64,000 bases of DNA from Candidatus Atabeyarchaeum deiterrae. Lineage in GTDB: Archaea > Asgardarchaeota > Atabeyarchaeia > Atabeyarchaeales > Atabeyarchaeaceae. Both the position numbers and the translations under genes were made by a program. Location of the stretch: assembly GCA_037310415.1 (NCBI GenBank), contig CP147780.1, positions 1,760,001-1,824,000 on the forward strand. Direction: 5' to 3'. The notes under the pieces are model-generated. The model was not told the origin of the DNA. It ran no database searches and saw only the letters and a list, made by a program, of their open reading frames with translations. Shown here piece by piece: positions 43,317 through 58,537 of this stretch. Position 1 is the first letter of the stretch. Each line of letters opens with the position of its first letter.

Positions 43317-44624
43317 ATGAAGCGAGACGAAAAATCAATTGACATCGAATACCTTCCCCGAGTTGAGGGGCATGGAGCTATAACAATAGAGATTACGGAT
43401 AGTGGTAAGGTTGGCGATGTGAAAGTCGACATACCAGAAGCTCCAAGACTCATAGAAGCCTTAGTGGTGGGCAAGACTCCTGAAGAAGACTTGAACATGG
43501 TTCCTAGAGTATGTGGCATATGTTCCTTCAGCCACAAGTATGCAGGCATCCGCGCCTTTGAAAAAGCATTGAATGTGGTTCCCTCTAAGAAAGCAGTCGC
43601 ACTAAGAACCCTCCTACATATTTCCGAAACCCTCCAAAGCGACGTTCTACACGTCTTCTTCCTTTCACTACCTGACCTCCTAGGTTACCCCAACGCCATA
43701 GCCATGGCTAGCGACTACAAAGACGCGGTCTTGAGTGCCATGAAGATGAAAGGGTTCGCCAACAAGATGATGGAAATAGGATCCGGTCGATTCGTACACG
43801 GAGAAAACCCAGTCATAGGAGGCTTCGGGAGATACCCATCTGAAGAAGAGCTAACACCACTCAAAGAACAATCACAAGAACTCATTCCACTAGCTGAAAA
43901 AGCAATGAAGCTGCTCGGAGACATGGAAATCCCAACATTCCCAGAACGAGAAACGATCTTCATGTGCCTCAAACCGCCAACAGGAGAATACGGCTTGGTC
44001 GGAGACACGGTATTCGTCTCGGACGGAAAAGAGACACCAGTAGAGAACTACGAACAACTCACAAACGAGAGAGTAGTCTCCCATTCGTTTGCAAAGCGAT
44101 CAACCTACGGCGGAAAACCCTTCACCGTCGGTGCCCTTGCAAGAATAAGCCTCCTCGGAGACCGCCTCAAAGGAATAGCGAAAAAGTATTACGATCAATA
44201 CTACGGTGAGCAGTGGAAGAAGAACATACTATACAACATCCACGCTCAAGCACTTGAAATCCTCTGGTGCCTGCAGGCAGTATTCCCGGTTGTAGACGAG
44301 ATCGTAGAAGCAGAAACGCCGAACGAAGGGATCGCAAAACGAGGCAGGGCAACAGGCAAGGGAACTGGCGCAGTCGAAGCGCCGAGAGGAATACTGTATC
44401 ACCACTATGAGGTCGAGAACAATCTAATCAAGCGCTCCAACATTATCACACCTACCGCGCAGAACCTTGACGACATCGAGGAGTACCTTAAAGTCGCGGC
44501 GACCAACCTTCTGAAGCAGAATGAAAAAGAGGATCTTCCGGCTAAGTTGGAGATGGTTGCGAGAGCATTCGACCCGTGCATCAGCTGCTCAGTACATGTG
44601 CTGCGACTCAAGTCTGGCCAATAG
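43317..44624 (+). CDS. hydA: Group 3b [NiFe]-hydrogenase large (alpha) subunit
   Basis: RVEGHG, L1 RVCGIC, EAPRG, L2 DPCISCSVH plus a short cleavable tail; ATG 43317 preceded by GGTGA. Confidence 0.95.
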   Translation: MKRDEKSIDIEYLPRVEGHGAITIEITDSGKVGDVKVDIPEAPRLIEALVVGKTPEEDLNMVPRVCGICSFSHKYAGIRAFEKALNVVPSKKAVALRTLLHISETLQSDVLHVFFLSLPDLLGYPNAIAMASDYKDAVLSAMKMKGFANKMMEIGSGRFVHGENPVIGGFGRYPSEEELTPLKEQSQELIPLAEKAMKLLGDMEIPTFPERETIFMCLKPPTGEYGLVGDTVFVSDGKETPVENYEQLTNERVVSHSFAKRSTYGGKPFTVGALARISLLGDRLKGIAKKYYDQYYGEQWKKNILYNIHAQALEILWCLQAVFPVVDEIVEAETPNEGIAKRGRATGKGTGAVEAPRGILYHHYEVENNLIKRSNIITPTAQNLDDIEEYLKVAATNLLKQNEKEDLPAKLEMVARAFDPCISCSVHVLRLKSGQ

Positions 44625-45178
44625 AGTGCTCCAGAGAAACAGGGTTTTCAAACTCACGCCACACTGCATTTTGCATTCATCAAACTGGGAGAAAAGACGG
44701 AGCACGCACCTACTTGAACTCCGGCCAGCGTTGCAGGTGGTGGCATAAGCCGACTTATGTGTATCATGGGCGTTTCAATATGAACAATGTTGGAAACGGA
44801 TGCGATGATTAGGCGTTAATCTTTCTGGCATATCCCACTAAGCTGATTTTTCTCCACCCTTCAATCGAGTTAAATAGTCTTCACTCTATAATGCTATCCG
44901 TCGAAGAGAAGATTACATCTAATGAGCTATAGCTTCAGCCAAGTCATCTGCCAATCATTATCCCTAGTCGTTCGAGTATGATCTCGTATGGTGACCGCAT
45001 GAGGTCCGAGGAAAGAATGCCTCCACCCTGAGGGCGAGTACATGGTGGGGAAAACCCTCAGGATCTATGTCCCAGGGCTCTGTGGAGATCACCAGGATTC
45101 GCTGCCCGGCGGCATAGTTAGTGTTAGCGTGACCGATTTGATTTCGTGATTATTCAAGCCAGCGCTTTGACGGCATGA

Positions 45179-45874
45179 GTGTATTCTCGAATCAAGAGGT
45201 CGATAGTAATAATGCAGCAAACCGGTGGACATAGAAACCATAGGACCATACTAGGAGAGCAAGCTTGTCGAGTTGTTAGAGCATCCTTGGAGGAACAGTG
45301 TTGGAGGATGCACACGTTTGATTGGGTTCCTATCTTTTCATGTTGTCAGACCTGCTCCAATGAGAAGAAACTATCGGAGGAAGCACGCAAGTCCTATGGA
45401 TGGACTAGGCCTGATTTTCTAGCGAAGTCCCTGTCCGGGAATCTCTGCCTTTTGGAAGTCAAGGGCAAGAGCAGACGCAAGTTTGTCGTTGATGACTTTA
45501 GGTATGAATCTTATGTATACTGGGAGCGATTTCTTGGCATTCCAGCATTCGTAGTTTTCTATGTAAGCTCGGATAACAGACAGGACGATAGCAGATTATA
45601 TCTGCATAAGGTCCTTGATGAGGACGTTAGAATTGGTGATATCGGCGATAACTTGGAGCTACTTGTGGACACAGAGGGCAATGTGAGCCAGACAAATGAT
45701 AAAGTCATATCGTTGAAACGAATAGATTCAGGATGGTTCCTAAGTGAAGAGCTTGAACAACAAATTGATGCCTGGGATGTATCTGAAAGTCTCTCAAAAT
45801 GGATCGAAAGAAAGGACTCCGATTTAAACACCGAGAAATTGTCAGAATCGGCCGTACGCCACCTGCTGCAATGA
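45179..45874 (+). CDS. PD-(D/E)XK nuclease-fold protein
   Basis: GE helix, RPDFLA...LLEVKGK. Confidence 0.72.
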   Translation: MYSRIKRSIVIMQQTGGHRNHRTILGEQACRVVRASLEEQCWRMHTFDWVPIFSCCQTCSNEKKLSEEARKSYGWTRPDFLAKSLSGNLCLLEVKGKSRRKFVVDDFRYESYVYWERFLGIPAFVVFYVSSDNRQDDSRLYLHKVLDEDVRIGDIGDNLELLVDTEGNVSQTNDKVISLKRIDSGWFLSEELEQQIDAWDVSESLSKWIERKDSDLNTEKLSESAVRHLLQ

Positions 45875-46370
45875 GCGTTGAAGCCAGTAAGTCGGATGCT
45901 GGATTTCCGCTACGTTACTCATCGTCATGGTGTTCATGCCCCATTGGCCCAGTGAGATAATGGAAATGTCGTGAAACTAATGAGGACAAATGCGGATGCG
46001 GACGGAGCAGTTAGTCGGAACTTGGTTTTGCAGGAGCCAACCAGGAAATGCATTAGTCTGTCTTGCGTTCTCTTCAGTCTCGCTGCTGTGTGCGCCGAAA
46101 GTGACGGAGCAAAACATAGACCAGGTATGTACGCTGTGATTGCGCTGCTAATATACACTCTGATTTGAACTCTCAATTGTCGAGCCTGCATTTCTCTCCT
46201 CCGATCTGGGCTCTCGATTACATGGCTCATGCGTCGTTTGGACTCTTAATTCTCAAACACATGTCCGGGTGACCAAGGAGTGGAGCGCCACTCGAATATC
46301 TCTGAATTGCCAGAGGCAACTTACCAAAGATTTTTAATACCCCAATCCTACCTTCAGTCAGGGTGAGGGA

Positions 46371-49010
46371 ATGCAGGACAAACCCAAGCTATTGGTTAAA
46401 TTCTCAGGATTGCCAGATGCGACAAGTGGCTTCTTCTTGCCTGGCAATAACTGGCTTATTACTGGTCATCAGAATGGCTTAGTCCTCAGATGGGATGTCG
46501 AGAAAGGCACGAGTGATCTCTTGTACAAGTGCGCTTCGGAAATTGAGACGATTTCGGGATCAGGCGGGAAGAGTATCGTAATTGGCACTCATGCAGGCGA
46601 ACTTGTCGTTCTGGATCTGGAAAACCCGAAAAACGCCGAGGTGATCCAAAAGGCTACATATGACAAGCATTCGCGAATTTGGAGAACGGTTTGGCCCACG
46701 AAAGGTGGCATAGTATTCACCTCAACATATGGTGTAATGAATGCCGTTTCGAGAACAATGGAGGGACGTTGGGAAAACGTCCCCCTCTCTGGTCATTCTG
46801 ACAGTATATTTGGTTTGGGCAACTTCGACGGCACTCTTTTGGCTTCTGGAGACTACAGGGGCAATATCCTAATCTGGAAATCCGAAGCGGGCAGGTACGC
46901 TGTGATTCAAACTCTCAAGGTCAACCAGGTCATACAAGGTATATCATGGCACAAGGATCGATCATTTGCGGTGATCGGACAAGCCGGACGCATCTATTTG
47001 TACGAAGAAACTGAGAGTAACACGCAACAATGGCAACTTATCGTCGAAGTGAGCAATGCGAGTAGTTACGGAAGATGCGTACACATAACAGACGACGGAA
47101 AGACTGTTTTTGCAGGAACGGACAATGAACTAATTCAGTTTGACATAGATTCTCAACAAGTTGGATCGATCGATATTGCGGGCGCAAGAACGCTATTCTC
47201 AAAAGGCGATACAATCTACGTTCTGACAGGAAACGCATTCGAGTCGTTTCAGAAAAAGAAAATAGAAGTTAAGGTAGGCTTCATAAGATACAGGTATGCG
47301 AAAATCAGCTTGATCGGACAAACGGGTGTAGGAAAAAGCACCCTCTGCAATTTTATTATAACTGGATCGCCCGGAGACTTGAAGTCGACTTTCGGCAGGA
47401 GGGTATGGAACTGGAGCATCCTGGGCGATGAGTCTCTTGAGAGGCGAATCATTTTCTACGATCACGGTGGTCAGGAGACAGTCCTCGGCACATTCTTGCC
47501 TTTCATAACGGATTCTGATCTCATCCTCATTGTCTTTCAACAGAACGACAAAGGGACGTTTAGAACTGCTCTTAGAACTCTAGACCAGATCAAGACCAGT
47601 CTAGCTCCAAAGACAAAGATATTCTTTGTGCAAACTCACATCGATCATCGAATGAATGAGATTGATGAGTCCTACGTTAAGAGCCTCGTTGACTCGGGGC
47701 AGATCAACGGTCACTTCAAAGTGTGTCCTTCGGACGGTTCAGGAGTGGAGGAACTGAAGTCCCGCTTGGCCAAAGAGATATCTTGGGTCGACGCACGGAT
47801 TATGATCCAATCCCAAAGCGTGGATGGCGTCATAAAGACAATCTCATCTCTGCAAGACAGGAACGTCAACACGATCAGATTTGAATTCTTCAGGAAGGCG
47901 TATGGGCAACTAGGTTTGAACATATCAGCCAAACATCTCGAATTCCTGCTCCGAGACTTAAGCGACCAAGGCATGATCGACTATTACCCTAAAGTCAGCG
48001 ATTTGATCATCATTAGCGACGAGAAGTACAATGAACTGCGAACACAGATTCCCATCTTCGTAGATCAGCACAACGGAATTGTCTCATTCGACGACCTACT
48101 TGCCGCCTTTGGACATCACGAGTACTTGCCGATATTGGACTTGGTATATCAGAGCTACGGTGTATCCATCAAGGATCAGAACCTAAGAGTTTTCCCAGAG
48201 AAACTGAAGAGCGAAATCATAACTATTCCTGAGAAGTACAGCCACCTTTTGAAAGGGAGCCAGCCTAGGGTCGTGTCTACACCGCCACGCAAGATCGAGG
48301 TAGCTCGCTTGATTGCAGCTCTTTCTGAACTCAACCTGCGATGCATTGACGCATCACAGAGTGATGGTCTGTTTTCATGGGAAGAGAATGCATGTGTCTA
48401 CTATAGGTTCCAGAGATTTGGCGATGCAATGCAGGGAGAAGTTGTCAGATGGACGTACTTTATTGCCGGCGCCAAGAAGCAGACATGCGAGCGTCTTGAA
48501 GGCGAGTTCCAAAGCATTGTCGAGAAGCTTTATGGTCCCTTTGTCGCAACCTCTCAGAACAATCTTAAAAAAAAACCGTTGAAGAAGGAAATTAGGTTCG
48601 ACGTTGCACTTTCTTTCGCCGGAGAGCAGAGAGATTACGTGAGGCAAGTAGACGAGATCCTTGAGGGCAAGGGCGTCAAAACATTTTTCGCTGAGTTTTA
48701 CACTCACCAGCTCTGGGGAACGAACCTTGCAGAGTACCTCAATGATGTTTTCTACTCACAGTCGAATTATTGTATGATGTTCGTCTCCAAAGAGTATATA
48801 GAGAAAGCTTGGCCAACGCATGAACGCAGAAGTGCGATTGCCAGACAGATCAAACAGTTTGGCAACTACATATTGCCCGTCATATTTGACGATTCTGAGG
48901 TTCCAGGTTTTCAGCTTTCATCAATAGGATATTTAGACGCGAGAAAAATGTCTCCATCAGATGTGGCTAATCAATTTGTCAAAAAACTGGAAGCAAGTCA
49001 GGGCAGTTAG
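46371..49010 (+). CDS. WD40 - Roc GTPase - COR - TIR protein (Roco family)
   Basis: WD-like repeats (GHSDSI..LASGDYRGNILIW); G1 GQTGVGKST, G2 STFG, G3 DHGGQE, G4 THID; COR-like LEFLLRDLSDQGMIDYY; TIR FDVALSFAGEQR...SKEY..KAWPTHE...ILPV. Confidence 0.85.
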   Translation: MQDKPKLLVKFSGLPDATSGFFLPGNNWLITGHQNGLVLRWDVEKGTSDLLYKCASEIETISGSGGKSIVIGTHAGELVVLDLENPKNAEVIQKATYDKHSRIWRTVWPTKGGIVFTSTYGVMNAVSRTMEGRWENVPLSGHSDSIFGLGNFDGTLLASGDYRGNILIWKSEAGRYAVIQTLKVNQVIQGISWHKDRSFAVIGQAGRIYLYEETESNTQQWQLIVEVSNASSYGRCVHITDDGKTVFAGTDNELIQFDIDSQQVGSIDIAGARTLFSKGDTIYVLTGNAFESFQKKKIEVKVGFIRYRYAKISLIGQTGVGKSTLCNFIITGSPGDLKSTFGRRVWNWSILGDESLERRIIFYDHGGQETVLGTFLPFITDSDLILIVFQQNDKGTFRTALRTLDQIKTSLAPKTKIFFVQTHIDHRMNEIDESYVKSLVDSGQINGHFKVCPSDGSGVEELKSRLAKEISWVDARIMIQSQSVDGVIKTISSLQDRNVNTIRFEFFRKAYGQLGLNISAKHLEFLLRDLSDQGMIDYYPKVSDLIIISDEKYNELRTQIPIFVDQHNGIVSFDDLLAAFGHHEYLPILDLVYQSYGVSIKDQNLRVFPEKLKSEIITIPEKYSHLLKGSQPRVVSTPPRKIEVARLIAALSELNLRCIDASQSDGLFSWEENACVYYRFQRFGDAMQGEVVRWTYFIAGAKKQTCERLEGEFQSIVEKLYGPFVATSQNNLKKKPLKKEIRFDVALSFAGEQRDYVRQVDEILEGKGVKTFFAEFYTHQLWGTNLAEYLNDVFYSQSNYCMMFVSKEYIEKAWPTHERRSAIARQIKQFGNYILPVIFDDSEVPGFQLSSIGYLDARKMSPSDVANQFVKKLEASQGS
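48567..48575 (+). repeat. A9 homopolymer at the COR/TIR junction
   Basis: ctt AAA AAA AAA ccg; both alternative frames stop within 7 codons. Confidence 0.9.
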
Positions 49011-49013
49011 CGG

Positions 49014-49634
49014 GTGAACCCATGGCCATCATTCATATGTATTAGAAATCGAGGATCCAGTTCGATCTCCGCAAAGCGGGAGGAGAGAGTTATGTCGGTC
49101 GTTTCCGGTAGCTTCCTTGATGATTTCTGTCTTGCTTGTCAGAGGATCGGTTCAGATTACTTCGACGTACCGATGAAAGGTGGGAAGCCGAAGTATCTTG
49201 AGAGAGTCTACTGCTATGAACTTTACCATCGGCTCCGCAGCTGCTCTCGACTTGCCTTGTCCCCGGTTACTCTGTTTGGAGAACCTGATAAATCCGCATA
49301 CCGCAGACTGAGCGAAAAGGTACGAGCGAAGAAACCAGATCTTATATTTCATGTCCCGGGCGAAGCCAGGAACTTGATTGTCATTGAGGTGAAACCAGCA
49401 AAAATGAGGCGAAATGGTCTTTGGAAAGACATCAATACCCTAAGTACTTTCTTGAGTGATGTTGACACGCAATACCTTTATGGTATCATGCTTGTTTACG
49501 GGGCACTCGAAACAGGGGGCTTACCTTGGTTCGTTAAGATTGATCTCCGCAATCTCGCAGGCGATTACGCGAATCGCATCCTTCTCCTGTGGCATGCACA
49601 TCCGGGAGAGAAGCCTTCGCTGGAGACATGGTAG
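49014..49634 (+). CDS. PD-(D/E)XK nuclease-fold protein (probable start 49092)
   Basis: ERVYCYELYHRLR helix, KPDLIFH...IVIEVK, KDI..L; GGAGG RBS before ATG 49092. Confidence 0.75.
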   Translation: MNPWPSFICIRNRGSSSISAKREERVMSVVSGSFLDDFCLACQRIGSDYFDVPMKGGKPKYLERVYCYELYHRLRSCSRLALSPVTLFGEPDKSAYRRLSEKVRAKKPDLIFHVPGEARNLIVIEVKPAKMRRNGLWKDINTLSTFLSDVDTQYLYGIMLVYGALETGGLPWFVKIDLRNLAGDYANRILLLWHAHPGEKPSLETW

Positions 49635-49877
49635 GCAATTCGCATAGGCACACTTATGTGCGTCATTTTCCATGTTCGCGCGTGCGACCCAGCGGTCCGG
49701 TTAAGAGGATAGCCTTTTGGCAATCCATCGTAGAAGACCATGATTAGTAGATGGGACAATTCGGGGACGAACCTTGATTGCCCGAGCAATCATGACTGCC
49801 AGCAATTCTTAGTAAACATATATAGGCTAATCGTCGTACCGATCCAATCATATCCAGTCTAAAGCACCTTCGACGTC

Positions 49878-50657
49878 TCAAAAAGTAATCGCATGGATCC
49901 TGAACAGTTCCGCTAGCGTCTCTCCTGGAATCAGAGAGCAATAGGTTTTCTTTCTTTCGTTTATCCTGACAAAATGGTGATGAGCGGCTTGTATGGAAGT
50001 CTGCACCGCTCTTGACAAGGCACGTCCATAGATCCAGACGAACCCGTCAATGTTGTATTCCAGCGCCTTTGATGTCTGAGACCTAATCTTGTCCTCGGAA
50101 ATATCGTCATTCAGAGTCTTGATCTGAAACCCAATTATCGCGCCGCTTATCTTCTTCGATACGTCAATCCCAGAATATTCCTTTATTCCGTGCAGCGATA
50201 ATTGGAATGATTTGGCAATCCTTTGGAGCAGGACATCAAAAGCGCTAAGCAGTTTATCATGGGGACTATAGATTCTTTCAAATCTTGAAACTATCTGCTC
50301 TCTTTCCTTGGCGAATTTGGACTTATCGTATCCTATTTCGATATATCCGGAGACAAAGTTGTTGGCAATTTCAAAACCGGATGGTTCATGATAGTTTACA
50401 TCGATCTTTGAAAGGCGTGGGTACAGAAGGTCATTAACGGTCTGTCTATCAACGGCGTTCACTCTGAAGAACGGTGTTTTCAGCGCTCTGACTGCGGCAA
50501 GGAATGACGTCTTAGCGACTTTTCCTTTGCCCACCTCTACTAATTGGCAATATGAATGGGCAATCATCTCCGCGAAGCAGTCTACATCTTGGAATCCAGC
50601 CTCATGAATGATGTCCATCACGATCGACAGCACACGCCTTTCGAATTCCACTCTCAA
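49878..50657 (-). CDS. Protein with C-terminal restriction-endonuclease-fold (D...QxK) domain
   Basis: GIDV...IIGFQIKT...I..Q..KA...IDGFVWI; N-terminal half not recognised. Confidence 0.6.
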   Translation of the reverse strand: MRVEFERRVLSIVMDIIHEAGFQDVDCFAEMIAHSYCQLVEVGKGKVAKTSFLAAVRALKTPFFRVNAVDRQTVNDLLYPRLSKIDVNYHEPSGFEIANNFVSGYIEIGYDKSKFAKEREQIVSRFERIYSPHDKLLSAFDVLLQRIAKSFQLSLHGIKEYSGIDVSKKISGAIIGFQIKTLNDDISEDKIRSQTSKALEYNIDGFVWIYGRALSRAVQTSIQAAHHHFVRINERKKTYCSLIPGETLAELFRIHAITF

Positions 50658-50718
50658 TCTGTTCGCACCCTAATTATCGTTCCTTCAATCGCTTCACAAC
50701 TGTAGCCGTCACTAAATC

Positions 50719-51111
50719 TTACTCGATCCCGAAGTCCTTTGAGAGTCTATGACTGATTCTAAGGAGTGCGTCGACCTTTGTCTTCCCGTAGATCGTCCCT
50801 TTCGCGTTAACTTCCTTGACTTCAATCAAACTCATTTCTTTGAGTTTCGGGATTTCCCGAGAGACATCGGGTCCAAGCAATTTCAAATCATTCGCGATAT
50901 CTCCAACAACTCTTGTGCCATCAATTGCAAGGTAGATTCTCGCCCTATTGACTGCCTTCTTCTTTCCTGGAACATTACCAAAGAAATCCATTATCTCAGC
51001 CAAGATCTCCTTGCCATGGGCGCGCGTTATTAGCTCAATGTTCCCATCGATGGATTCTTGGTGCCACCGTATTCTTTTGATCTCTTCGAATAGATCCTCG
51101 GTCTCTGGCAT
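50719..51111 (-). CDS. Small helix + winged-HTH protein (array member 5)
   Basis: IYLAIDG..VVGDIA..L....VSREI.KL..MSLI; AGGAGTGA RBS. Confidence 0.75.
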   Translation of the reverse strand: MPETEDLFEEIKRIRWHQESIDGNIELITRAHGKEILAEIMDFFGNVPGKKKAVNRARIYLAIDGTRVVGDIANDLKLLGPDVSREIPKLKEMSLIEVKEVNAKGTIYGKTKVDALLRISHRLSKDFGIE

Positions 51112-51125
51112 GTTCTGGTCACTCC

Positions 51126-51434
51126 TTAAATCGGGAATAGCTTCCTGTAGAACTTTCCTCCTGGTCTCTCGATCTCATATATGATGCCAACCTCCTCCCA
51201 TTCGGCAAGTATGGGGCTTAGGGTCGGTTCTTTCACGCCCACGATCTCAGCGATCTGTGAGAGAGAATGATTGCCATCACATGCATTGTAGCCGTTGATA
51301 TACCTCTCTGGATCTTGCTTTTTTCTCGCGGTTACTATGTTGCGCACGGATTCAGGTTTGAAAACTAGTCGCCCTAGCAGAGAGATTATGATCTCACTTT
51401 GCTTTACTAACTTCATTACGGGTACTTCACTCAA
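51126..51434 (-). CDS. Small helix + winged-HTH protein (array member 4)
   Basis: GYNACDGNHSLSQIAEIVGV...TLS.IL.EW..VGII; GGAGG RBS. Confidence 0.78.
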   Translation of the reverse strand: MSEVPVMKLVKQSEIIISLLGRLVFKPESVRNIVTARKKQDPERYINGYNACDGNHSLSQIAEIVGVKEPTLSPILAEWEEVGIIYEIERPGGKFYRKLFPI

Positions 51435-51664
51435 TTTCCTGCCTCCAATGCCTCGCTATTTCATGTCGATTCGTCATTTCTTGAAGTTGCCGGTAAAGGA
51501 TACGAATTTTTGGAGAGGCACCGTGGATTCTCCGTTGCCTCCCGGTTTGTCAGCCAGAACTGTTGACAACTCGCCAAGCACTCAGTCACCCTCAATCATA
51601 AGCAAAGAGGAGAACTGTGTGACGACAAAAGCCCGATTCATGCTGACTCGTCCTGAGAAGACCT

Positions 51665-51964
51665 CTAGACGTCTAGGTTATCCAAGTTGACGTACTTCTT
51701 GCTTCGCGCCTTCCCCGAACTCAAGATAAGACCTCTCCTTTCCCAGAGAGGCAATACCGATTCAAGTTGTCGATTATCTGTGTAACCAGCAAATTGTGCT
51801 ATCTCATCTATTAAACGTTTACCATCTAGAGCTTCGTAAGCTTTTCGTTGCTGGTCAGTTTTCAGCAACTCGGCCTTGAGACCATCAACCATCGCTCTTG
51901 TTTGCATGAGGATGAGCTTGACTATGATCGATGCCTGCCTTGCAGGCTCATCGTGTTCGCTCAC
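51665..51964 (-). CDS. Small helix + winged-HTH protein (array member 3)
   Basis: AYEALDGKR.IDEIA..AG......L..W..RGLI; AGGAGGTGG RBS. Confidence 0.78.
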   Translation of the reverse strand: MSEHDEPARQASIIVKLILMQTRAMVDGLKAELLKTDQQRKAYEALDGKRLIDEIAQFAGYTDNRQLESVLPLWERRGLILSSGKARSKKYVNLDNLDV

Positions 51965-52104
51965 GGTAAACCCACCACCTCCTTTTCATGAGAAATGTCT
52001 TGGACACTGCCAGATTTCTCAACAGCGCCAGTCCGGGTCCAGTCGTCTCGCCGCTCTCGGTCCCGTATGGTGAGGATATATACACGCGATCCTCTGCTTC
52101 CTTC

Positions 52105-52356
52105 TTAGCCCGTTTCCGGGCTCCCTTTTCCACTCCTTTGCTTTCTAATCATGGACAGCGTAACGTTAACGGTATTCGTTGTAGTCCCGATTGTTGTCGC
52201 TATCTGGCTAGGTCCGAGACCTGCATCAAATAGCACCTCGATCTGTTTTTTCTGGCTTTTCATATCCTTGATTATGTTGAGAGCGGATAGCCGTATCAGA
52301 GTATCTAACCTCAATGCTATTTCAGAAAGTTGAGGATCACCCTTTATGGAACTCAC
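52105..52356 (-). CDS. Small helix + HTH protein (array member 2)
   Basis: RLDTLIRL helix; AGLGPSQIATTIGTTTNTVNVTLS HTH; GGAGGTGA RBS. Confidence 0.78.
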   Translation of the reverse strand: MSSIKGDPQLSEIALRLDTLIRLSALNIIKDMKSQKKQIEVLFDAGLGPSQIATTIGTTTNTVNVTLSMIRKQRSGKGSPETG

Positions 52357-52431
52357 GTTTCTTTTTCACCTCCAACCGGGGCTTCTCTTGTCTTAGTTTG
52401 TTCTTCGAGTAGTTACGCCTCTTTTGATGTC

Positions 52432-52767
52432 CTATTTCAAGGGAGAAATCTCGATTCCGAAATCCTCGAGTGAGAAGACTCGCTTAGCTCGTTCTCCTCC
52501 TTTCACGCTTGAGAGTTCTGCAAGGCCTGCTCTTGACCACTTCTTCCACCACTTAGTCACGGTCACATAGCTCGCCCCGCAGTTATTGGCGACCTCTTGG
52601 CTGCTACGTCCATCGCTGAAATGGTAGGCAAGTTTTTCTTCATCACTTTCAAGCATGTCCTCGAGGAGTTTCTTAACTGTCGGGATGCTTGTGACCTTCA
52701 ACCACTTCAGTATCTCTTCAAGGATGCGTATTTTCTTCTCATTGAGGTCCTTTTCGTCGTTGGACAT
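52432..52767 (-). CDS. Small helix + winged-HTH protein (array member 1)
   Basis: LEEILKWL helix; AYHFSDGRSSQEVA..CG.S..TV..WW..W..AGL. Confidence 0.78.
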   Translation of the reverse strand: MSNDEKDLNEKKIRILEEILKWLKVTSIPTVKKLLEDMLESDEEKLAYHFSDGRSSQEVANNCGASYVTVTKWWKKWSRAGLAELSSVKGGERAKRVFSLEDFGIEISPLK

Positions 52768-54136
52768 TCTTGTCGTAATCCCCCATGCATGAACCCCTGA
52801 TCAGATTATTCTGCCAGATCGAATATAACAATTTCTTTTGTTCTGTATCTGATGGCAGAGAGGATTGCGAATTCCCTCACGGGGAACCACAGGTTCCATA
52901 AAGTCCTCGGTGAAGCGTTCTAGCGGTCTGTCTGCCACGGTGTCGCCCTCATCTGCAATCCTGTAAACTGTGGCTTGAAACCCTCTAAACCCCCCGTGGA
53001 AGTTTCGTGATGGAAGTGACTCCGCCTGGGATATTGACCGAGAAAAGTGAATTATCTCTCTCAAATTGGGTTTTGGTTGCTCTCTTGGCCTTGCTAATCT
53101 TAGTATCATGAAAGGAGGACACAACTGCCAACCCTCCATGTGCCCCATCAACGAACACAATCAGTAGAAAAGAATTGGATGATTCTTTCCTTCCCGTAAC
53201 CTGGAACCAACCTGGTGAATGTTTTAGGGGATGCGAAAACTGGCGCTAGTCAGTGTAACCTTGGAGCCAGCAATTCATAATCTAAATGATCCGGACCGTT
53301 GGGGCGCGTTGACAGTCGATTCCTGTCTAGACCACCAGCAGATACACACAGGTCGAGTCATGTACGGTCCTGCAGCTAGAAAAGCAACCTAGAAAAGTGG
53401 ACTTGTGAATACGCAGCGATGCTCTTTCGGACTCCCAGCTGGTGAGAAGGTATGACTTTCAAACCAATATCAAGTCGATACCTCTTAGCGGCCTTGAACT
53501 CTGAGATATAATGAATCAACGTGATTGACTGCTACTTGTTCATTGCACTCCATCGACAAACCTAGAACGAGCCTCCACCCACCCCGACGGTTCTTTCCAG
53601 CGGACTACCCATCTCTATTTTTGGATGGACTATCGTATCGACGTGCGTATCTTTCCATTATTCGAATCGGTAGCAACAGGTAGTACTATAGCGTCTGGCC
53701 TGGTTCACATAAGCCGGGTTGTGTGCAAACGCTTGTCTGAAAAGGCGGTCAAGACATTAGTGTGCATTTAGTCAGTCTTTGTGATTCCCTGGCTCAGCGA
53801 AGATTTGTCAAATGCGCGTCGTCGAAAGGTATCCTCGTGGCCAGTAGACCTCAGTACGTGAAAGAACTTGTTTGTTTCTATTCTTCTCAGCTTGACCCCT
53901 TTTCTGATTGGTCGTCACCTCACTGTCTTCGGATTGGATGAGCCCAATCGGTTCCGGGATATCAGGCTCCGAGAAAAGGCGGGGAGCGAGTCAACAAGAA
54001 TGTATCAGGAGCTTAAAGACGTCCCAACGAACTAGAGTTGAAAGTGAGCTTTCAGGAGGAGTGCGGGATGAAATTGGCTGTCGAGGAGGATTTCTCTTGA
54101 AAGCGAATGCTTCAGAATGCCGGGGCTTAACTGAAG

Positions 54137-54751
54137 CTAGTGGAATATCTTGAGCAACGCGTAGCCTTGGAATGCTGACCATAAGACCAAACCATACACG
54201 GCCAGTTTCTGCATCCATGCTGTGCCTATAAGAAAGATATGCAGCAGACATATGGCGGCCACTATTATGCCAACGAGCGCGAACCATTGGTTATAATTCT
54301 TGTTAAGAAGAATGGCAACCGAATATATCACGATGGCTGAGGCGTAGAGCAGGAAGAACAGTATCGTTGACATGCCGTGTTCTAAGGGGAATATGTCACC
54401 AGCTAAGATGGCAAGCGCAGATAGGAACGGTGCCGCCGCGAGACCAAGAACAGTGCCCACGTAACCCAGATATTTCACCGAATTCGGTTTCGTGAAGACG
54501 GTGTGAATAGACAGCCAGAATGGAACGGAACAGACCGCAGCAGACGTGCAGGCTGCAGAGAACAAAACATAGTTCACCGTATTAGGCTGACCGGCCACCT
54601 GTGTTAATCCTAGTTCACTGAAGTAGTTCGCAAGAAATGAGTAACCGCCAGGGTAAATCAGCATGCTCGTAAATGTGAGGATGACGAAAAGGACGCCGCC
54701 AAGTATCCCGCTAACTGCACCATACCATTTCCATGACCCAGTCACTCGCAA
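54137..54751 (-). CDS. DUF998-like membrane protein
   Basis: YPGGYSF..NYFSELG motif; about 6 TM; conserved His and QK. Confidence 0.7.
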   Translation of the reverse strand: MRVTGSWKWYGAVSGILGGVLFVILTFTSMLIYPGGYSFLANYFSELGLTQVAGQPNTVNYVLFSAACTSAAVCSVPFWLSIHTVFTKPNSVKYLGYVGTVLGLAAAPFLSALAILAGDIFPLEHGMSTILFFLLYASAIVIYSVAILLNKNYNQWFALVGIIVAAICLLHIFLIGTAWMQKLAVYGLVLWSAFQGYALLKIFH

Positions 54752-54909
54752 TCACCTTCTGCGTCTTATTGCCTTGTCTTTTATTGTCTGATTCTTCACC
54801 CTAATATACTCAGCTCACTCCTAGTTGATGAGAAACTTGGTTCAACGTCGGGTTGAGATCGGAACCAGCAGGATCTGGAATCCAGTGGGGGGCTCCAGAT
54901 ACGATTCCG

Positions 54910-55263
54910 TCAGCTACCCGTTGTGATCGGCTTGTATGATTCGACGAAGCTTTTGGCAAATTCCATTGCGTTCCCCTCAGTGCCTCTGTGAACCTTGTCT
55001 ACCCTTGTCCTTAGATGATGGTAGAACTCATGCAGGACTACAAACGGGTTCATCAACACGTCGCTGTTCAGAACAGATATCGTTCTGTCTCTGGCCGTAT
55101 AGCACCCCAGCACATTCTTCCGGTGCCCCTTGGGCAGACCAACTTTTATTCTGGGCACGCTGACATGGTAGTAGTCTGCGAGCAGCTCTAAGGCGTTCTC
55201 AGGTCTGCCGTCCAATATAAGCTGGACGACAGAGGTCTTGAACTTGATTGGGTCCACAGGCAT
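54910..55263 (-). CDS. Small zincin-like (HExxH) protein
   Basis: GCY...TI.V...VLHEFYHHL...TE..A..FA. Confidence 0.65.
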   Translation of the reverse strand: MPVDPIKFKTSVVQLILDGRPENALELLADYYHVSVPRIKVGLPKGHRKNVLGCYTARDRTISVLNSDVLMNPFVVLHEFYHHLRTRVDKVHRGTEGNAMEFAKSFVESYKPITTGS

Positions 55264-55466
55264 TCCTTTTGCCTTCGACGAATTGGATCAGCTTCTTGGG
55301 TTGCTACCACATTCTAAATGACTCTGGTCTCTAGCTCACTCAGCTGCACATATATATTTATTAACTTCCCAATCTAACGTCTCTAAGAATGCATTTGAAG
55401 GTTGAGACTAGGGGCAACACGCAGCTTTGGCAAAACGGAAGAGGATACTAGTGGTGAGATGAGCAA

Positions 55467-56654
55467 ATGACAAAAATACAATTGGCTGATAACCTCTACT
55501 GGGTTGGCGTGGTAGACTGGAACCTGAGGGACTTCCACGGATACACGACCAATCGTGGAGGAACCTATAATTCTTACCTCATAGTTGATGAAAAGACGGC
55601 GCTGGTTGATACAGTCAAGTACGTTTTCCGTGAAGAACTCGTGGAGAAAATCAGTGAAATTGCAGATCCAGAGAAACTTGACTATGTTGTCATAAACCAT
55701 GTTGAACAGGACCATTCAAGTTCATATTTGGAGATCTTGAAGCTGGCTAAGAACGCTACGATTATTGCCACTCAGCGAGGAAAGGAGGCACTCATCAAGC
55801 ATTATGGTGAGGTCCCCAACGAGATCAAGACAGTCAAGACTGGGGATGAGGTGAAGCTTGGCAAACGAACTTTGAGATTCATTGAGGCTCCAATGATTCA
55901 TTGGCCCGACAGCATGATGACTTACGTAGTTGAGGATGGAATTCTACTATCGAATGATGCGTTCGGTCAGCATTACGCGACTTCCGGTCGTTTCGATGAT
56001 GAGGTTGACGAACATGTCCTGATGGAGGAGCTGGCGAAGTACTTTGCAAACATCTTGATGCCGATTACGACTTTGATTGTTCGGAAGATTGATGAGGTTA
56101 CGCAGATGGGCGTCCCGCTGAACATGATTGCCCCCAGCCATGGAGTGATTTGGCGTTCGAACCCACAGAAAGTTGTCAGAGCATATCTGGATTGGTGTAA
56201 GGGATTCCTCAATAAACCAAAAGTCGTAGTGGTCTATGATACAATGTGGGGAAGCACGGACAAGATGGCGAGAGCCATAGTCGAGGGAGTCAGAAGCACA
56301 GGCGCAGAAGCCAAGCTCATGAAGCTTAGGATAGCAGAGATGAGTGATATTGTCACAGAGATCTTGGATTCGAAGGCCGTGATTGTCGGTTCCCCAACTC
56401 TGCACAATGAGATTTTTCCAACCGTGAGCGGGTTCATGACATACATTTCGGGATTGAAACCCAAGAGCAAGATATGGGGTTTCTTTGGTTCCTTCGGTTG
56501 GGGTGGAGGAGCAGTCAAAAAGATGATAGCGATGGCGAACGAAGCGAAATTCGAAGTGCATGAAGCCAGCTTGGAAATCAAGTACATCCCGACGAAGGAA
56601 GAACTGGAAAGATGCATAGCTTTCGGAAAAGAAATTGCCGAGAAGATAATCTAA
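55467..56654 (+). CDS. fprA: Flavodiiron protein (FprA family)
   Basis: GTYNSY, NHVEQDH, IHWPD, SNDAFGQH, PSHG, FGWGGG. Confidence 0.94.
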   Translation: MTKIQLADNLYWVGVVDWNLRDFHGYTTNRGGTYNSYLIVDEKTALVDTVKYVFREELVEKISEIADPEKLDYVVINHVEQDHSSSYLEILKLAKNATIIATQRGKEALIKHYGEVPNEIKTVKTGDEVKLGKRTLRFIEAPMIHWPDSMMTYVVEDGILLSNDAFGQHYATSGRFDDEVDEHVLMEELAKYFANILMPITTLIVRKIDEVTQMGVPLNMIAPSHGVIWRSNPQKVVRAYLDWCKGFLNKPKVVVVYDTMWGSTDKMARAIVEGVRSTGAEAKLMKLRIAEMSDIVTEILDSKAVIVGSPTLHNEIFPTVSGFMTYISGLKPKSKIWGFFGSFGWGGGAVKKMIAMANEAKFEVHEASLEIKYIPTKEELERCIAFGKEIAEKII

Positions 56655-56728
56655 ACTCGATGATTCAAGCCCAATTATCTTCTTTTCTTGGCGCGTAGTG
56701 TGGGCGAGCGTCTGTGAATGAGTTAGTT

Positions 56729-57226
56729 TCACTCCTTCAGGAGATAACTCATGTAGGATTTGTATGGTGGTTCGAAGTCAATCTGCCACATGAGGCAGAT
56801 AAGTTCGCCTCTGTGGTGTATCTCTTCTTCCACAACGTGTACTAGCAAATCCTCAATGCGGAATTTGTTCTTACCGCGTGGAAACTCTTTGTCCAGTTGT
56901 GCTGGAATTAGTTTCGCAAGGGCGGCTCGGCTTTCTGTCTCAACGTCATTCATGTATTTTTCCATTGTTTTTATGTTTTCGAAGCTTCTTTCATAGCCTT
57001 TGCTTGACTCTTTGTCTCTCTTTCCAGATGCCAACGCCTTCAACCAGCTTTCCTCTGCGTCTAAGCTATGAAGAAAGACATTCCGTATGGAACCGAAACT
57101 TGCACCCCGATCCTCAATGACTTTTTCCCAGGGAAGCTTCGCCATGCTCTCAAGAAACTTGCGCCTACAATACCAGTTGTACTCAAACAATGCTCTAATA
57201 TCTATCATAATATCAACCAGATACAT
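56729..57226 (-). CDS. DinB family protein
   Basis: YN.Y, GSIR..F.H...E..W, HV..EE.HHRG. Confidence 0.88.
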   Translation of the reverse strand: MYLVDIMIDIRALFEYNWYCRRKFLESMAKLPWEKVIEDRGASFGSIRNVFLHSLDAEESWLKALASGKRDKESSKGYERSFENIKTMEKYMNDVETESRAALAKLIPAQLDKEFPRGKNKFRIEDLLVHVVEEEIHHRGELICLMWQIDFEPPYKSYMSYLLKE

Positions 57227-57550
57227 GCATGTAGCAGTTGATTAGAAGCTTTAGTGTTTCGCTCCTAAATTAGTTTGCGGAGTCCAGCTCACTTCCGCCT
57301 CTGATTCATCTGCGAGAGTAATGAGGAGCTTGAGCATGGAGAAGCATGGCTATGAGGCAGAGACGGGCACGAAATTTGATTCTTCTCAATAAGTTCGCGA
57401 TGACATTGCACTCAATTTAAAAGTCCTCTCTGAAATAACTAATGTCAGAGAATTGCCCGTAAAGTCACGTTTAGGGGTGTTATTGTTGTTCTGTCTGATG
57501 AGAAAAGTGGAAAGAGAAATTCCTAATGATGCACTCGGAGGACTGCAAAA

Positions 57551-58537
57551 ATGAAAGCAAATCCGAAAACACTTCTTGTTACCGGTATGGGGTTTCTGCC
57601 TGACTGGATTAGCCAACACATTAAGAGTGCTGAAATCGTATGCACGTTTGACGTAACTGAGGAAAGTCTTGGCAAAAAAGTGAAGGGCTTCGATGGAGTA
57701 CTGTTCATGCAAACCGTTAGCCACTACAAGATCACCAGAAAGATAATCGAATCTGGAGACAAGCTTAGATTCATCCAATCCGGAGGCGTGGGGTATGAGC
57801 AGATCGATGTGGACGCGGCGACCGATCATGGAGTCGTCGTTATGAACGTGCCAACCGCAACAACGGTGTCAGTCGCGGAACACGCCATTGCTCTGATTCT
57901 GGCATGTGCAAAGAATATAGTCAAGATGCACAAGACTATTCTCGCAGGTGGATGGCGCACAATGGATTTTGGAGTGGAACTTTCGAAGAAAACGTTGGGC
58001 ATAATAGGGCTTGGCAGGATCGGAAAGGCAGTGGCGGAGAGAATGAGGTCATTTGAAATGGCGATTCTCGTTTTCGACCCGTATGCGGAGGAAGCTGATG
58101 TCAGAAAGATGGGATGTAAGAAGGTTGATCTAGCGACCCTGCTTAAGGAGTCCGATGTCATTACGATCCATTCCCCTCTCACGAAAGAGACAACGGGATT
58201 GATCGGAGAACCCGAATTCAACGTAATGAAAAGCTCAGCCATTCTTGTGAATACTGCGAGAGGAGGAGTCATAGACGAGAAGGCGCTAATCAAAGCACTG
58301 ACTGATGGACGCGTAGGTTACGCTGGGCTTGATGTCTTTGGGATGGAGCCCGTAGAGAAAGATAATCCTTTGCTCTTGCTGGAGAATGTCATTCTGACAC
58401 CACATAGTGCTGTACAGAATCAAGACGCTATGGCGAGATTAATGAACCAAAACGGCATCCAAGTGGAAAAGGCGCTTAATGGGAACTACGAGAATGTCGT
58501 TAACCCCGATGTTTTAAAGAAGTTAGCTAAACGTTAA
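57551..58537 (+). CDS. D-isomer 2-hydroxyacid dehydrogenase (SerA-like)
   Basis: GVG...ID, VAEH, GLGRIG, VNTARG, LDVF..EP, TPH. Confidence 0.92.
   Translation: MKANPKTLLVTGMGFLPDWISQHIKSAEIVCTFDVTEESLGKKVKGFDGVLFMQTVSHYKITRKIIESGDKLRFIQSGGVGYEQIDVDAATDHGVVVMNVPTATTVSVAEHAIALILACAKNIVKMHKTILAGGWRTMDFGVELSKKTLGIIGLGRIGKAVAERMRSFEMAILVFDPYAEEADVRKMGCKKVDLATLLKESDVITIHSPLTKETTGLIGEPEFNVMKSSAILVNTARGGVIDEKALIKALTDGRVGYAGLDVFGMEPVEKDNPLLLLENVILTPHSAVQNQDAMARLMNQNGIQVEKALNGNYENVVNPDVLKKLAKR

Follow-up and report, generated by a model that had tools for sequence, protein, structure and literature searches.

What does a row of five small, mutually divergent helix–turn–helix (HTH) genes do directly ahead of a gene for a restriction-type nuclease in the genome of an Asgard archaeon? 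The locus that raises this question occupies positions 49878-52767 of a 64,000-nucleotide stretch of Candidatus Atabeyarchaeum deiterrae DNA (assembly GCA_037310415.1, contig CP147780.1, positions 1,760,001 to 1,824,000 of the forward strand), referred to below as the window, and consists of six minus-strand genes designated A to F. The original prediction, made from the letters of the window alone, had taken it for an undescribed multi-subunit conflict system in which helix-plus-HTH proteins gate an exchangeable effector, here a nuclease. Our analysis puts at about one in two the probability that the operon is a copy of a conserved, horizontally mobile conflict operon in which winged-helix proteins control, or sense on behalf of, a toxic effector; in function it is probably a module of defence or addiction that has gone undescribed. 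The reading is built on what we established about gene order, paralogy, folds, conserved catalytic residues, effector swapping and an accessory, defence-linked location.

Gene layout of the operon

The list of open reading frames (ORFs) contains six intact minus-strand ORFs within 49878-52767, where the original prediction had placed them, five of them coding for proteins of 83-130 residues (aa) as it had said. The features are the following:

52432-52767, minus strand: gene A, 111 aa, with an N-terminal helix, an HTH of the IS630/HTH_23-28 type and the C-terminal sequence FSLEDFGIE
52105-52356, minus strand: gene B, 83 aa, with a helix, a sigma-region-4-like HTH and a basic tail
51665-51964, minus strand: gene C, 99 aa, with a helix and a winged helix
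51126-51434, minus strand: gene D, 102 aa when read from a TTG start
50719-51111, minus strand: gene E, 130 aa, the effector-proximal ArsR/MarR-like winged-helix protein
49878-50657, minus strand: gene F, 259 aa
50328-50657, minus strand: F residues 1-110, helical N-terminal domain with an invariant FF..N signature
49881-50324, minus strand: F residues 112-259, predicted Mrr-type PD-(D/E)xK nuclease domain
50094-50192, minus strand: catalytic stretch H156-E188 of F
52823-52828, minus strand: TTATAT, which may be an archaeal TATA box, 56-61 nt ahead of the first codon of gene A, as read from the sequence

Judged from its homologues, gene D probably starts at the ATG at 51416, which gives a protein of 96 aa. 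The genes are separated by gaps of 75 (A-B), 140 (B-C), 230 (C-D), 14 (D-E) and 61 bp (E-F), and the last of these agrees with the distance given earlier for the 259-aa protein, which also carries the GID...FQIK motif ascribed to it. Four genes, B, C, D and E, have GGAGG-like purine tracts 8-18 nt ahead of their starts, and clear ribosome-binding sites had been claimed for four of the small genes; weaker tracts precede A and F. Both sequence motifs proposed to unite the small proteins are present, with Y-x3-DG occurring in A, C, D and E and missing from B, and with DFGIE ending E and lying near the C-terminus of A. Searches for E and for F found each of them to be single-copy in the 2.76 Mb genome.

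Recurrence of the array

For the census of neighbourhoods, 66 loci coding for an F homologue were collected from genomes and metagenomes of Asgard archaea and Bathyarchaeia; the fetch includes 57 loci from metagenomes and 4 from genomes, and a few contigs were fetched twice from different collections. Genes were called by our own ORF procedure, which often sets starts too far upstream and thereby overestimates overlaps; overlaps cited here are therefore those of the collections' gene calls. By these calls many array genes overlap by 1-8 bp, as in locus L009. Six long neighbourhoods (from Freyarchaeum, Bathyarchaeum and four metagenome contigs) each hold 4-8 co-oriented small genes before F. 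The small genes of the census cluster into eight winged-helix families, namely A to E as in the window and three further ones, G, H and I.

As can be seen from the adjacencies, the arrays are variable in size and regular in arrangement. E stands directly ahead of F in 51 of the 55 loci that have upstream sequence, the four departures being one fusion of a nuclease to a TPR region and three truncated F genes. Of the 28 loci with at least 3.5 kb of upstream sequence, 26 have between 4 and 10 small paralogues ahead of F. Among these 28 long loci, family E is present in 27, A in 23, D in 22, B in 20, G in 16, H in 11, and C and I in 8 each, and a gene that we call Y in 9. Y encodes a 226-aa HEPN protein (Pfam Hypoth_Ymh, 105 bits) and is inserted in 11 arrays, with A directly before it in all nine readable cases. 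D and E are neighbours in 34 of 38 loci, and so are G and H in 18 of 19. The window's own order, ABCDEF, was seen once and fits this grammar; E and F alone, with no other small genes, make up one locus. Thus, the term five-gene array holds for the window and does not hold for the family, in which array size varies around a fixed E-F core that is usually D-E-F. The recurrence itself, with 4-10 member arrays of semi-conserved order in two archaeal phyla and on unassigned metagenome contigs, agrees with the original prediction, which had named arrays of 3-5 members in distant taxa as support. In five loci with an F of the window's type, identity to the window's proteins is 57-69% for D, 63-77% for E and 43-57% for F.

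Exchange of the terminal effector

An exhaustive search with a profile of E returned 288 representatives at E ≤ 1e-3 and 103 at E ≤ 1e-10, nearly all of them full-length proteins of 110-160 aa, and the E family is far more diverse than the F family. E-profile hits occur in 9 of 400 Asgard genomes and in 5 of 401 Bathyarchaeia genomes. We inspected the contexts of six distant E members together with the hits from these Asgard and Bathyarchaeia genome sets, and found that distant E-like genes again close runs of A/B/C/G/H/I-family genes. The protein encoded next differs from case to case: a CHAT protease (41 bits, the cut-off being 24) whose gene overlaps that of E by 4 bp; a 540-aa protein of no known family; proteins of 243-271 aa that keep the N-terminal domain of F and carry divergent nuclease motifs (EVAD...VVK or D...ETK); and proteins of 205-209 aa with the N-terminal domain of F and without the nuclease motif. 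The effector is thus exchangeable, as had been proposed, and its forms are the Mrr-type nuclease, divergent proteins of restriction-endonuclease (REase) fold, the CHAT protease, proteins of no known family and the inserted HEPN gene. Judging from gene order, the unit is E plus the gene that follows it. The N-terminal domain of F is shared with terminal proteins bearing other C-terminal domains and is therefore a candidate adaptor, which would stay constant while the effector domain changes.

A stand-alone relative of this domain was also seen. Proteins of about 90 aa with the F N-terminal signature TNFF.IN are encoded on the minus strand at L020:1498-1764, L025:1492-1788 and L026:1489-1764, in these three loci between genes for PAS-domain, radical-SAM-like and proteasome alpha-subunit-like proteins. 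A match to the F N-terminal domain is found in 66 of 89 genomes of three Asgard families; among the matches listed, all are in f31. This suggests that the adaptor domain either stems from a small housekeeping protein or is the source of one.

Two further observations concern the E profile. In L093:2719-3747 (protein P0162) an E-like winged helix is fused to the C-terminus of a hydrophobic, apparently membrane-spanning region of about 220 residues, with a TnpB-like gene nearby. Proteins P0225, P0236, P0250 and P0259 are chains of 567-733 aa built from 8-10 tandem HTH units of about 55 residues and match the E profile weakly; multi-repeat HTH proteins of this kind (6-10 units per chain) were considered as evidence for arrays and rejected, as they match the HTH core only.

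The nuclease F

AlphaFold models were built of E and F. That of F, computed from 27 homologues, has a predicted local distance difference test score (pLDDT) of 89. In an atlas search, residues 112-259 align with Mrr_cat clusters at template modelling (TM) scores of 0.43-0.48 and root-mean-square deviations of 2.7-3.7 Å over 128-148 residues, and the VIA search matches F to the nuclease domain of LlaBIII (Z 9.3), to AF1548 (Z 9.1) and to AspBHI (Z 8.1). Residues D165, Q178 and K180 are invariant in the 27 homologues, as are E160, D184 and E188. The D...QxK arrangement is the Mrr variant of the PD-(D/E)xK site. The C-terminal half of F is thus modelled as a restriction-endonuclease fold of the Mrr type with its active-site residues intact, for which nuclease activity is predicted; the motif GID...FQIK, earlier taken as the mark of a restriction-fold nuclease, is both invariant across the homologues and placed within that fold. 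The assignment comes through the atlas and VIA searches. Foldseek returned nothing from the PDB at E ≤ 0.001, a profile search of solved structures gave no relative (its sole match, a designed helical protein, was judged spurious), and Pfam gave no family at E ≤ 1, so no Mrr_cat or Mrr_cat_2 match above threshold.

Residues 1-110 are all-helical in the model. They have no Pfam match, the same polypeptide holds no Mrr_N winged helix, and no DNA-binding domain is recognisable in F. In the VIA search this domain resembles helical coat proteins of archaeal filamentous viruses at Z 6.3-7.5, values below what counts for helical bundles. A complex prediction for E and F, both entered as alignments, scored 0.01 with the mark at 0.32, a value that counts neither for nor against a contact.

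F has about 100 homologue clusters, and all named ones are annotated as hypothetical. Longer homologues yielded a TPR fusion only, and no fusion of a winged helix to F was found among them. The TPR-F fusion (971-985 aa, nuclease domain C-terminal; protein P0290, L066:5544-8501, plus strand) lies on a 1.9 Mb metagenome contig, with no small-gene array. At L087:884-1796 and L090:928-1639, F genes truncated to the nuclease half stand before a gene for a protein of 157-159 aa that bears a phosphatase-like HC...R signature, again with no array; these loci are either decayed copies or a minimal variant.

The small winged-helix proteins

The model of E (pLDDT 83) comprises two N-terminal helices, a winged helix and a C-terminal helix. 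Foldseek matches it to HlyU, CzrA, NolR and MepR with a probability of 1.0, target TM scores reaching 0.69 against ArsR-type regulators such as NolR and CzrA, and the E profile finds CzrA at E 8e-5. E is accordingly modelled as an ArsR/MarR-type winged helix with flanking dimerisation helices. For family A the profile matches the MarR-type protein AdcR weakly (E 6e-4), and for D the profile gave nothing below E 0.05. Searches of Pfam, NCBIfam and PADLOC gave sub-threshold HTH matches only for A, B, D and E, all under the Pfam gathering cut-off, and none for C and F; none of the operon proteins matched an antitoxin family in Pfam or NCBIfam, and PHROGs gave no significant match.

With this fold the shared motifs can be placed. 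Y-x3-DG is the end of the first helix in an ArsR/TrmB-type winged helix. FSLEDFGIE is a strong signature of family A, and in family E a similar C-terminal KDFG(I/L) is restricted to the subfamily that contains the window's E. The claim that each small protein begins with an amphipathic helix held in part: the N-terminus of E is helical in the AlphaFold model, whereas the hydrophobic moment of the N-terminal segments beats shuffled sequences for A only (45/1000 for A, 183-358/1000 for B to E). By analogy with ArsR and MarR folds, this helix would belong to the dimer core or interface and not form a separate module.

Pairwise comparison of the families with hhalign gave probabilities above 90% for 19 of 28 pairs, over 38-112 columns that include the N-terminal helix, with B and H as the outliers. 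Family A has 62 members in 36 loci. Family B (49 members, 33 loci) is the shortest and most divergent paralogue, at 32-94% against the other families. Family C is the rarest (8 members in 8 loci) and stands at 97-98% against A, D, G and I. Family D is single-copy and usually directly ahead of E, and its alignment has a mean column identity of 64% with 30 invariant positions. The families are mutually homologous, and each is its own orthologous family across phyla; they are therefore old paralogues, not recent copies. The earlier view of very divergent members without recent duplication is borne out by these separate families, kept across phyla and related by hhalign.

Genomic location and mobility

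The interval between the NiFe hydrogenase large-subunit gene and a flavoprotein gene (window 44625-55466) measures 10.8 kb here and 2.0 and 2.45 kb in two sister genomes, so that about 8.5 kb is an accessory insertion; both sister genomes were searched, and the insertion with its operon copy is missing from both. The interval holds an uncharacterised 231-aa protein, a WD40-Roc-TIR protein, a 206-aa protein, the operon, a 1.3 kb ORF-free stretch, and ORFs of 204 and 117 aa, the last two of which may belong to the part common with the sister genomes. The island contains no replication, capsid, integrase or methyltransferase gene, and its flanks show no direct repeats and no attachment-like sites. 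A transfer-RNA scan of the window found none, and an Rfam scan of 44000-58000 gave no match.

Relatives are patchily distributed. Besides the window's own genome, 2 of 400 Asgard genomes carry F, as do 4 genome records from a collection of 185,579 species, and a search of 2.9 million IMG/VR contigs gave no relatives of E or F. Neighbours of the homologous loci include type I and type IIG restriction-modification, Hachiman, OLD-family, HEPN_Swt1, AbiV and DUF4268 genes and helicases, and integrases lie beside three of the loci. The sequencing runs listed with the window stretch are DNA runs, from wetland and freshwater-sediment metagenomes only.

Other features of the locus and its relatives may be recorded here. 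The WD40/Roc GTPase/TIR protein (879 aa, 46371-49634, plus strand) matches TIR_2 at 54 bits and the PADLOC model PDC-S66 at 1.2e-13; its gene is followed after 3 bp by that of the 206-aa protein, which belongs to no known family, and the pair is convergent with F within the same inserted island. Upstream of the operon, the 1.3 kb at 52801-54136 holds no ORF longer than about 120 aa and has no second copy in the genome. At L008:1239-8330 an array with F lies between an integrase gene with a DUF763 part and a second DUF763 gene, and from its sequence the locus looks as if a small integrative element with the cassette had inserted into a DUF763 gene.

Proposed mechanism and alternative explanations

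In the mechanism that we propose, each locus would consist of a variable run of paralogous ArsR/MarR-like proteins ending in the E family, with a toxic effector directly after it. The winged-helix proteins, sitting on DNA, would do the sensing and exert the control. As the cognate partner of the effector, E would be either a repressor or an antitoxin-like keeper, and its target could be the operon, the N-terminal domain of F, or both. Invasion, or lost control, would then free F to cut DNA, resulting in restriction or abortive infection. DNA binding, protein-protein contact, the trigger and the defence role are what we infer here.

Several points weigh against this proposal. The fold and complex results lend no support to two parts of the original prediction, namely that the N-terminal helices assemble a hetero-oligomer and that this complex gates the nuclease. 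E resembles an ordinary autonomous regulator, and a lone distant E-like gene lies amid housekeeping genes on a Heimdallarchaeota contig, so that membership of the E family does not by itself imply the system. The window's genes lie 14-230 bp apart, without overlaps, and at two of the homologous loci the flanks are housekeeping genes only. The alternative effectors include a protease and an RNase, which argues against a purely DNA-targeting array. Finally, antitoxins usually evolve faster than toxins, and D and E are, unlike usual antitoxins, more conserved than F.

This last point bears directly on a reading of the operon as a toxin-antitoxin addiction module, with E as the DNA-binding antitoxin and F as the toxin, stabilising the host island, and with the other winged-helix genes as extra autoregulators or as orphan antitoxins against related toxins. 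E is indeed antitoxin-like in standing directly upstream of the effector gene, often overlapping it; an E-F-only locus exists; the loci are patchy and mobile, some of them beside integrases; A-family genes precede HEPN genes in like manner; and one partner family serving many toxic domains is familiar from PanA. Ordered arrays of 4-10 paralogues with a single-copy, conserved D nevertheless exceed any described layout, E is more conserved than its putative toxin, and no antitoxin family of Pfam or NCBIfam was matched, and we regard this reading as the most credible of the rivals and as unlikely all the same. Distinctly unlikely, in our estimate, is a split type IV (modification-dependent) restriction enzyme, in which F would be the Mrr catalytic subunit and the winged-helix proteins exchangeable recognition subunits acting in trans, each with its own mark or sequence. 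Such a division of labour would account for an Mrr-type core in F without the DNA-binding winged helix found in the same chain of Mrr-like enzymes, and it fits an operon without a methyltransferase; winged helices fused to such nucleases do sense methylated DNA (PMC11037411). Neither the CHAT protease that closes such arrays nor the HEPN RNase inserted in them, however, has to be directed to DNA; D and E show strong conservation and no diversification; and the longer homologues of F include the TPR fusion only and no fused winged helix.

The operon might also be the regulatory cassette of a small integrated plasmid or virus, with the winged-helix proteins as transcription factors of the element and F serving its DNA transactions. 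Archaeal viruses and plasmids typically encode small winged-helix regulators (PMC4158269, Table 1), three loci have integrases at their flanks, and in L008 the cassette is bracketed by an integrase gene and a second DUF763 gene. Against this stand the IMG/VR search with no relatives of E or F, the want of a significant PHROG match, the window island with no replication, capsid or integrase gene, and the fact that the flanks vary from locus to locus while the cassette is constant, all of which make an integrated-element cassette improbable. That unrelated regulators came by chance to lie beside a nuclease gene is hardly credible: each small protein taken alone does resemble an ordinary HTH regulator, but the arrangement recurs in dozens of loci and two phyla with its adjacencies kept (E-F 51/55, D-E 34/38, G-H 18/19), and because of this a chance cluster can be set aside. 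A conflict operon under winged-helix control is thus the reading that we prefer, and it is the one compared below with known systems.

Relation to known systems

PADLOC-DB 2.0 gave no significant component match; the best hits, at E 1.7e-4 to 0.03, are to generic winged-helix parts of CasR/CARF models, and F has none. No defence-system model was matched in that run, in line with the earlier statement that no named defence system was known to have this layout. In the literature on archaeal dark matter, HEPN domains, NTP-dependent conflict systems, BREX diversity and Atabeyarchaeia mobile elements we found no such array described. The part of the Atabeyarchaeia/Freyarchaeia genome study available to us, in which DefenseFinder and PADLOC were used, reports CRISPR-Cas, type IIG restriction-modification, Hachiman and DISARM for Freyarchaeia, and that part names nothing like the operon among its defence systems.

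Partial likenesses to known systems are several. The Mrr-type winged-helix/PD-(D/E)xK type IV enzymes (EcoKMrr, DpnI, HhiV4I; PMC11037411) share the catalytic fold and a D...QxK-type site, combine a winged-helix binder with a nuclease, and occur in defence islands without a methyltransferase. Here, in contrast, five to ten genes of different families encode the winged helices apart from the nuclease, a helical N-terminal domain replaces Mrr_N, the Pfam models Mrr_cat and Mrr_N do not match, and a protease can take the place of the nuclease. A restriction-modification controller (C-protein) unit differs in that the operon and its island have no methyltransferase.

Similar in gene order are the type II toxin-antitoxin modules, including the hyperpromiscuous antitoxin families (PanA), in which one partner family is paired with many toxic domains. 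They too have a small gene of the DNA-binding type directly upstream of, and often overlapping, a gene with a toxic domain, with many effectors and a mobile, patchy distribution. The operon described here differs in being a multi-gene paralogue array and not a two-gene module (26 of 28 long loci have 4-10 small genes), in a putative antitoxin that is more conserved than the toxin, and in matching no known family. The ArsR/SmtB and MarR repressors (CzrA, HlyU, NolR, MepR) supply the fold of E, including the N- and C-terminal dimer-interface helices; Pfam scores below threshold, no metal or ligand site identified in E, and multi-paralogue operons tied to toxic effectors set the present proteins apart from them.

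The palette of effectors, that is, Mrr-type nuclease, HEPN and CHAT, is that of the STAND and vWA-MoxR NTP-dependent conflict systems, which use effector-associated domains with swappable REase, HEPN, caspase/CHAT and TIR effectors (PMC7159879), and of Avs4 and the SAVED/nSTAND Mrr-like effectors. As in these, a small helical N-terminal domain is constant while the C-terminal effector varies. Unlike them, the operon lacks an NTPase, a second-messenger enzyme and a duplicate of the adaptor domain, and the presumed sensor is the winged-helix array. The components are ordinary, and the logic of pairing a regulator with a toxin is familiar; an array of many paralogues and an effector that bears an adaptor are not.

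Conclusions

If the proposal is true, the operon embodies a principle of defence or addiction not described before, in which several distinct small DNA-binding proteins, encoded side by side, are coupled to a replaceable killing enzyme. A bolder form of it, tentative and rather unlikely in our view, holds that 5-10 winged-helix proteins would form a heteromeric assembly that reads DNA, be it foreign DNA or the state of the host's, and signals via E and the adaptor to interchangeable effectors, as a new immune sensor spread by gene transfer across archaea and probably bacteria. The system is carried by Asgard archaea and Bathyarchaeia, groups in which what is known of immunity comes almost entirely from homology to bacterial systems, and it is missed by current detection tools. 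Its grammar is clear: E and then the effector, A and then HEPN, G with H, and D with E. Within it, the N-terminal domain of F could be a new adaptor linking regulators to effectors, and the operon of Atabeyarchaeum may represent one form of a class of cassettes that is widespread and has been overlooked.

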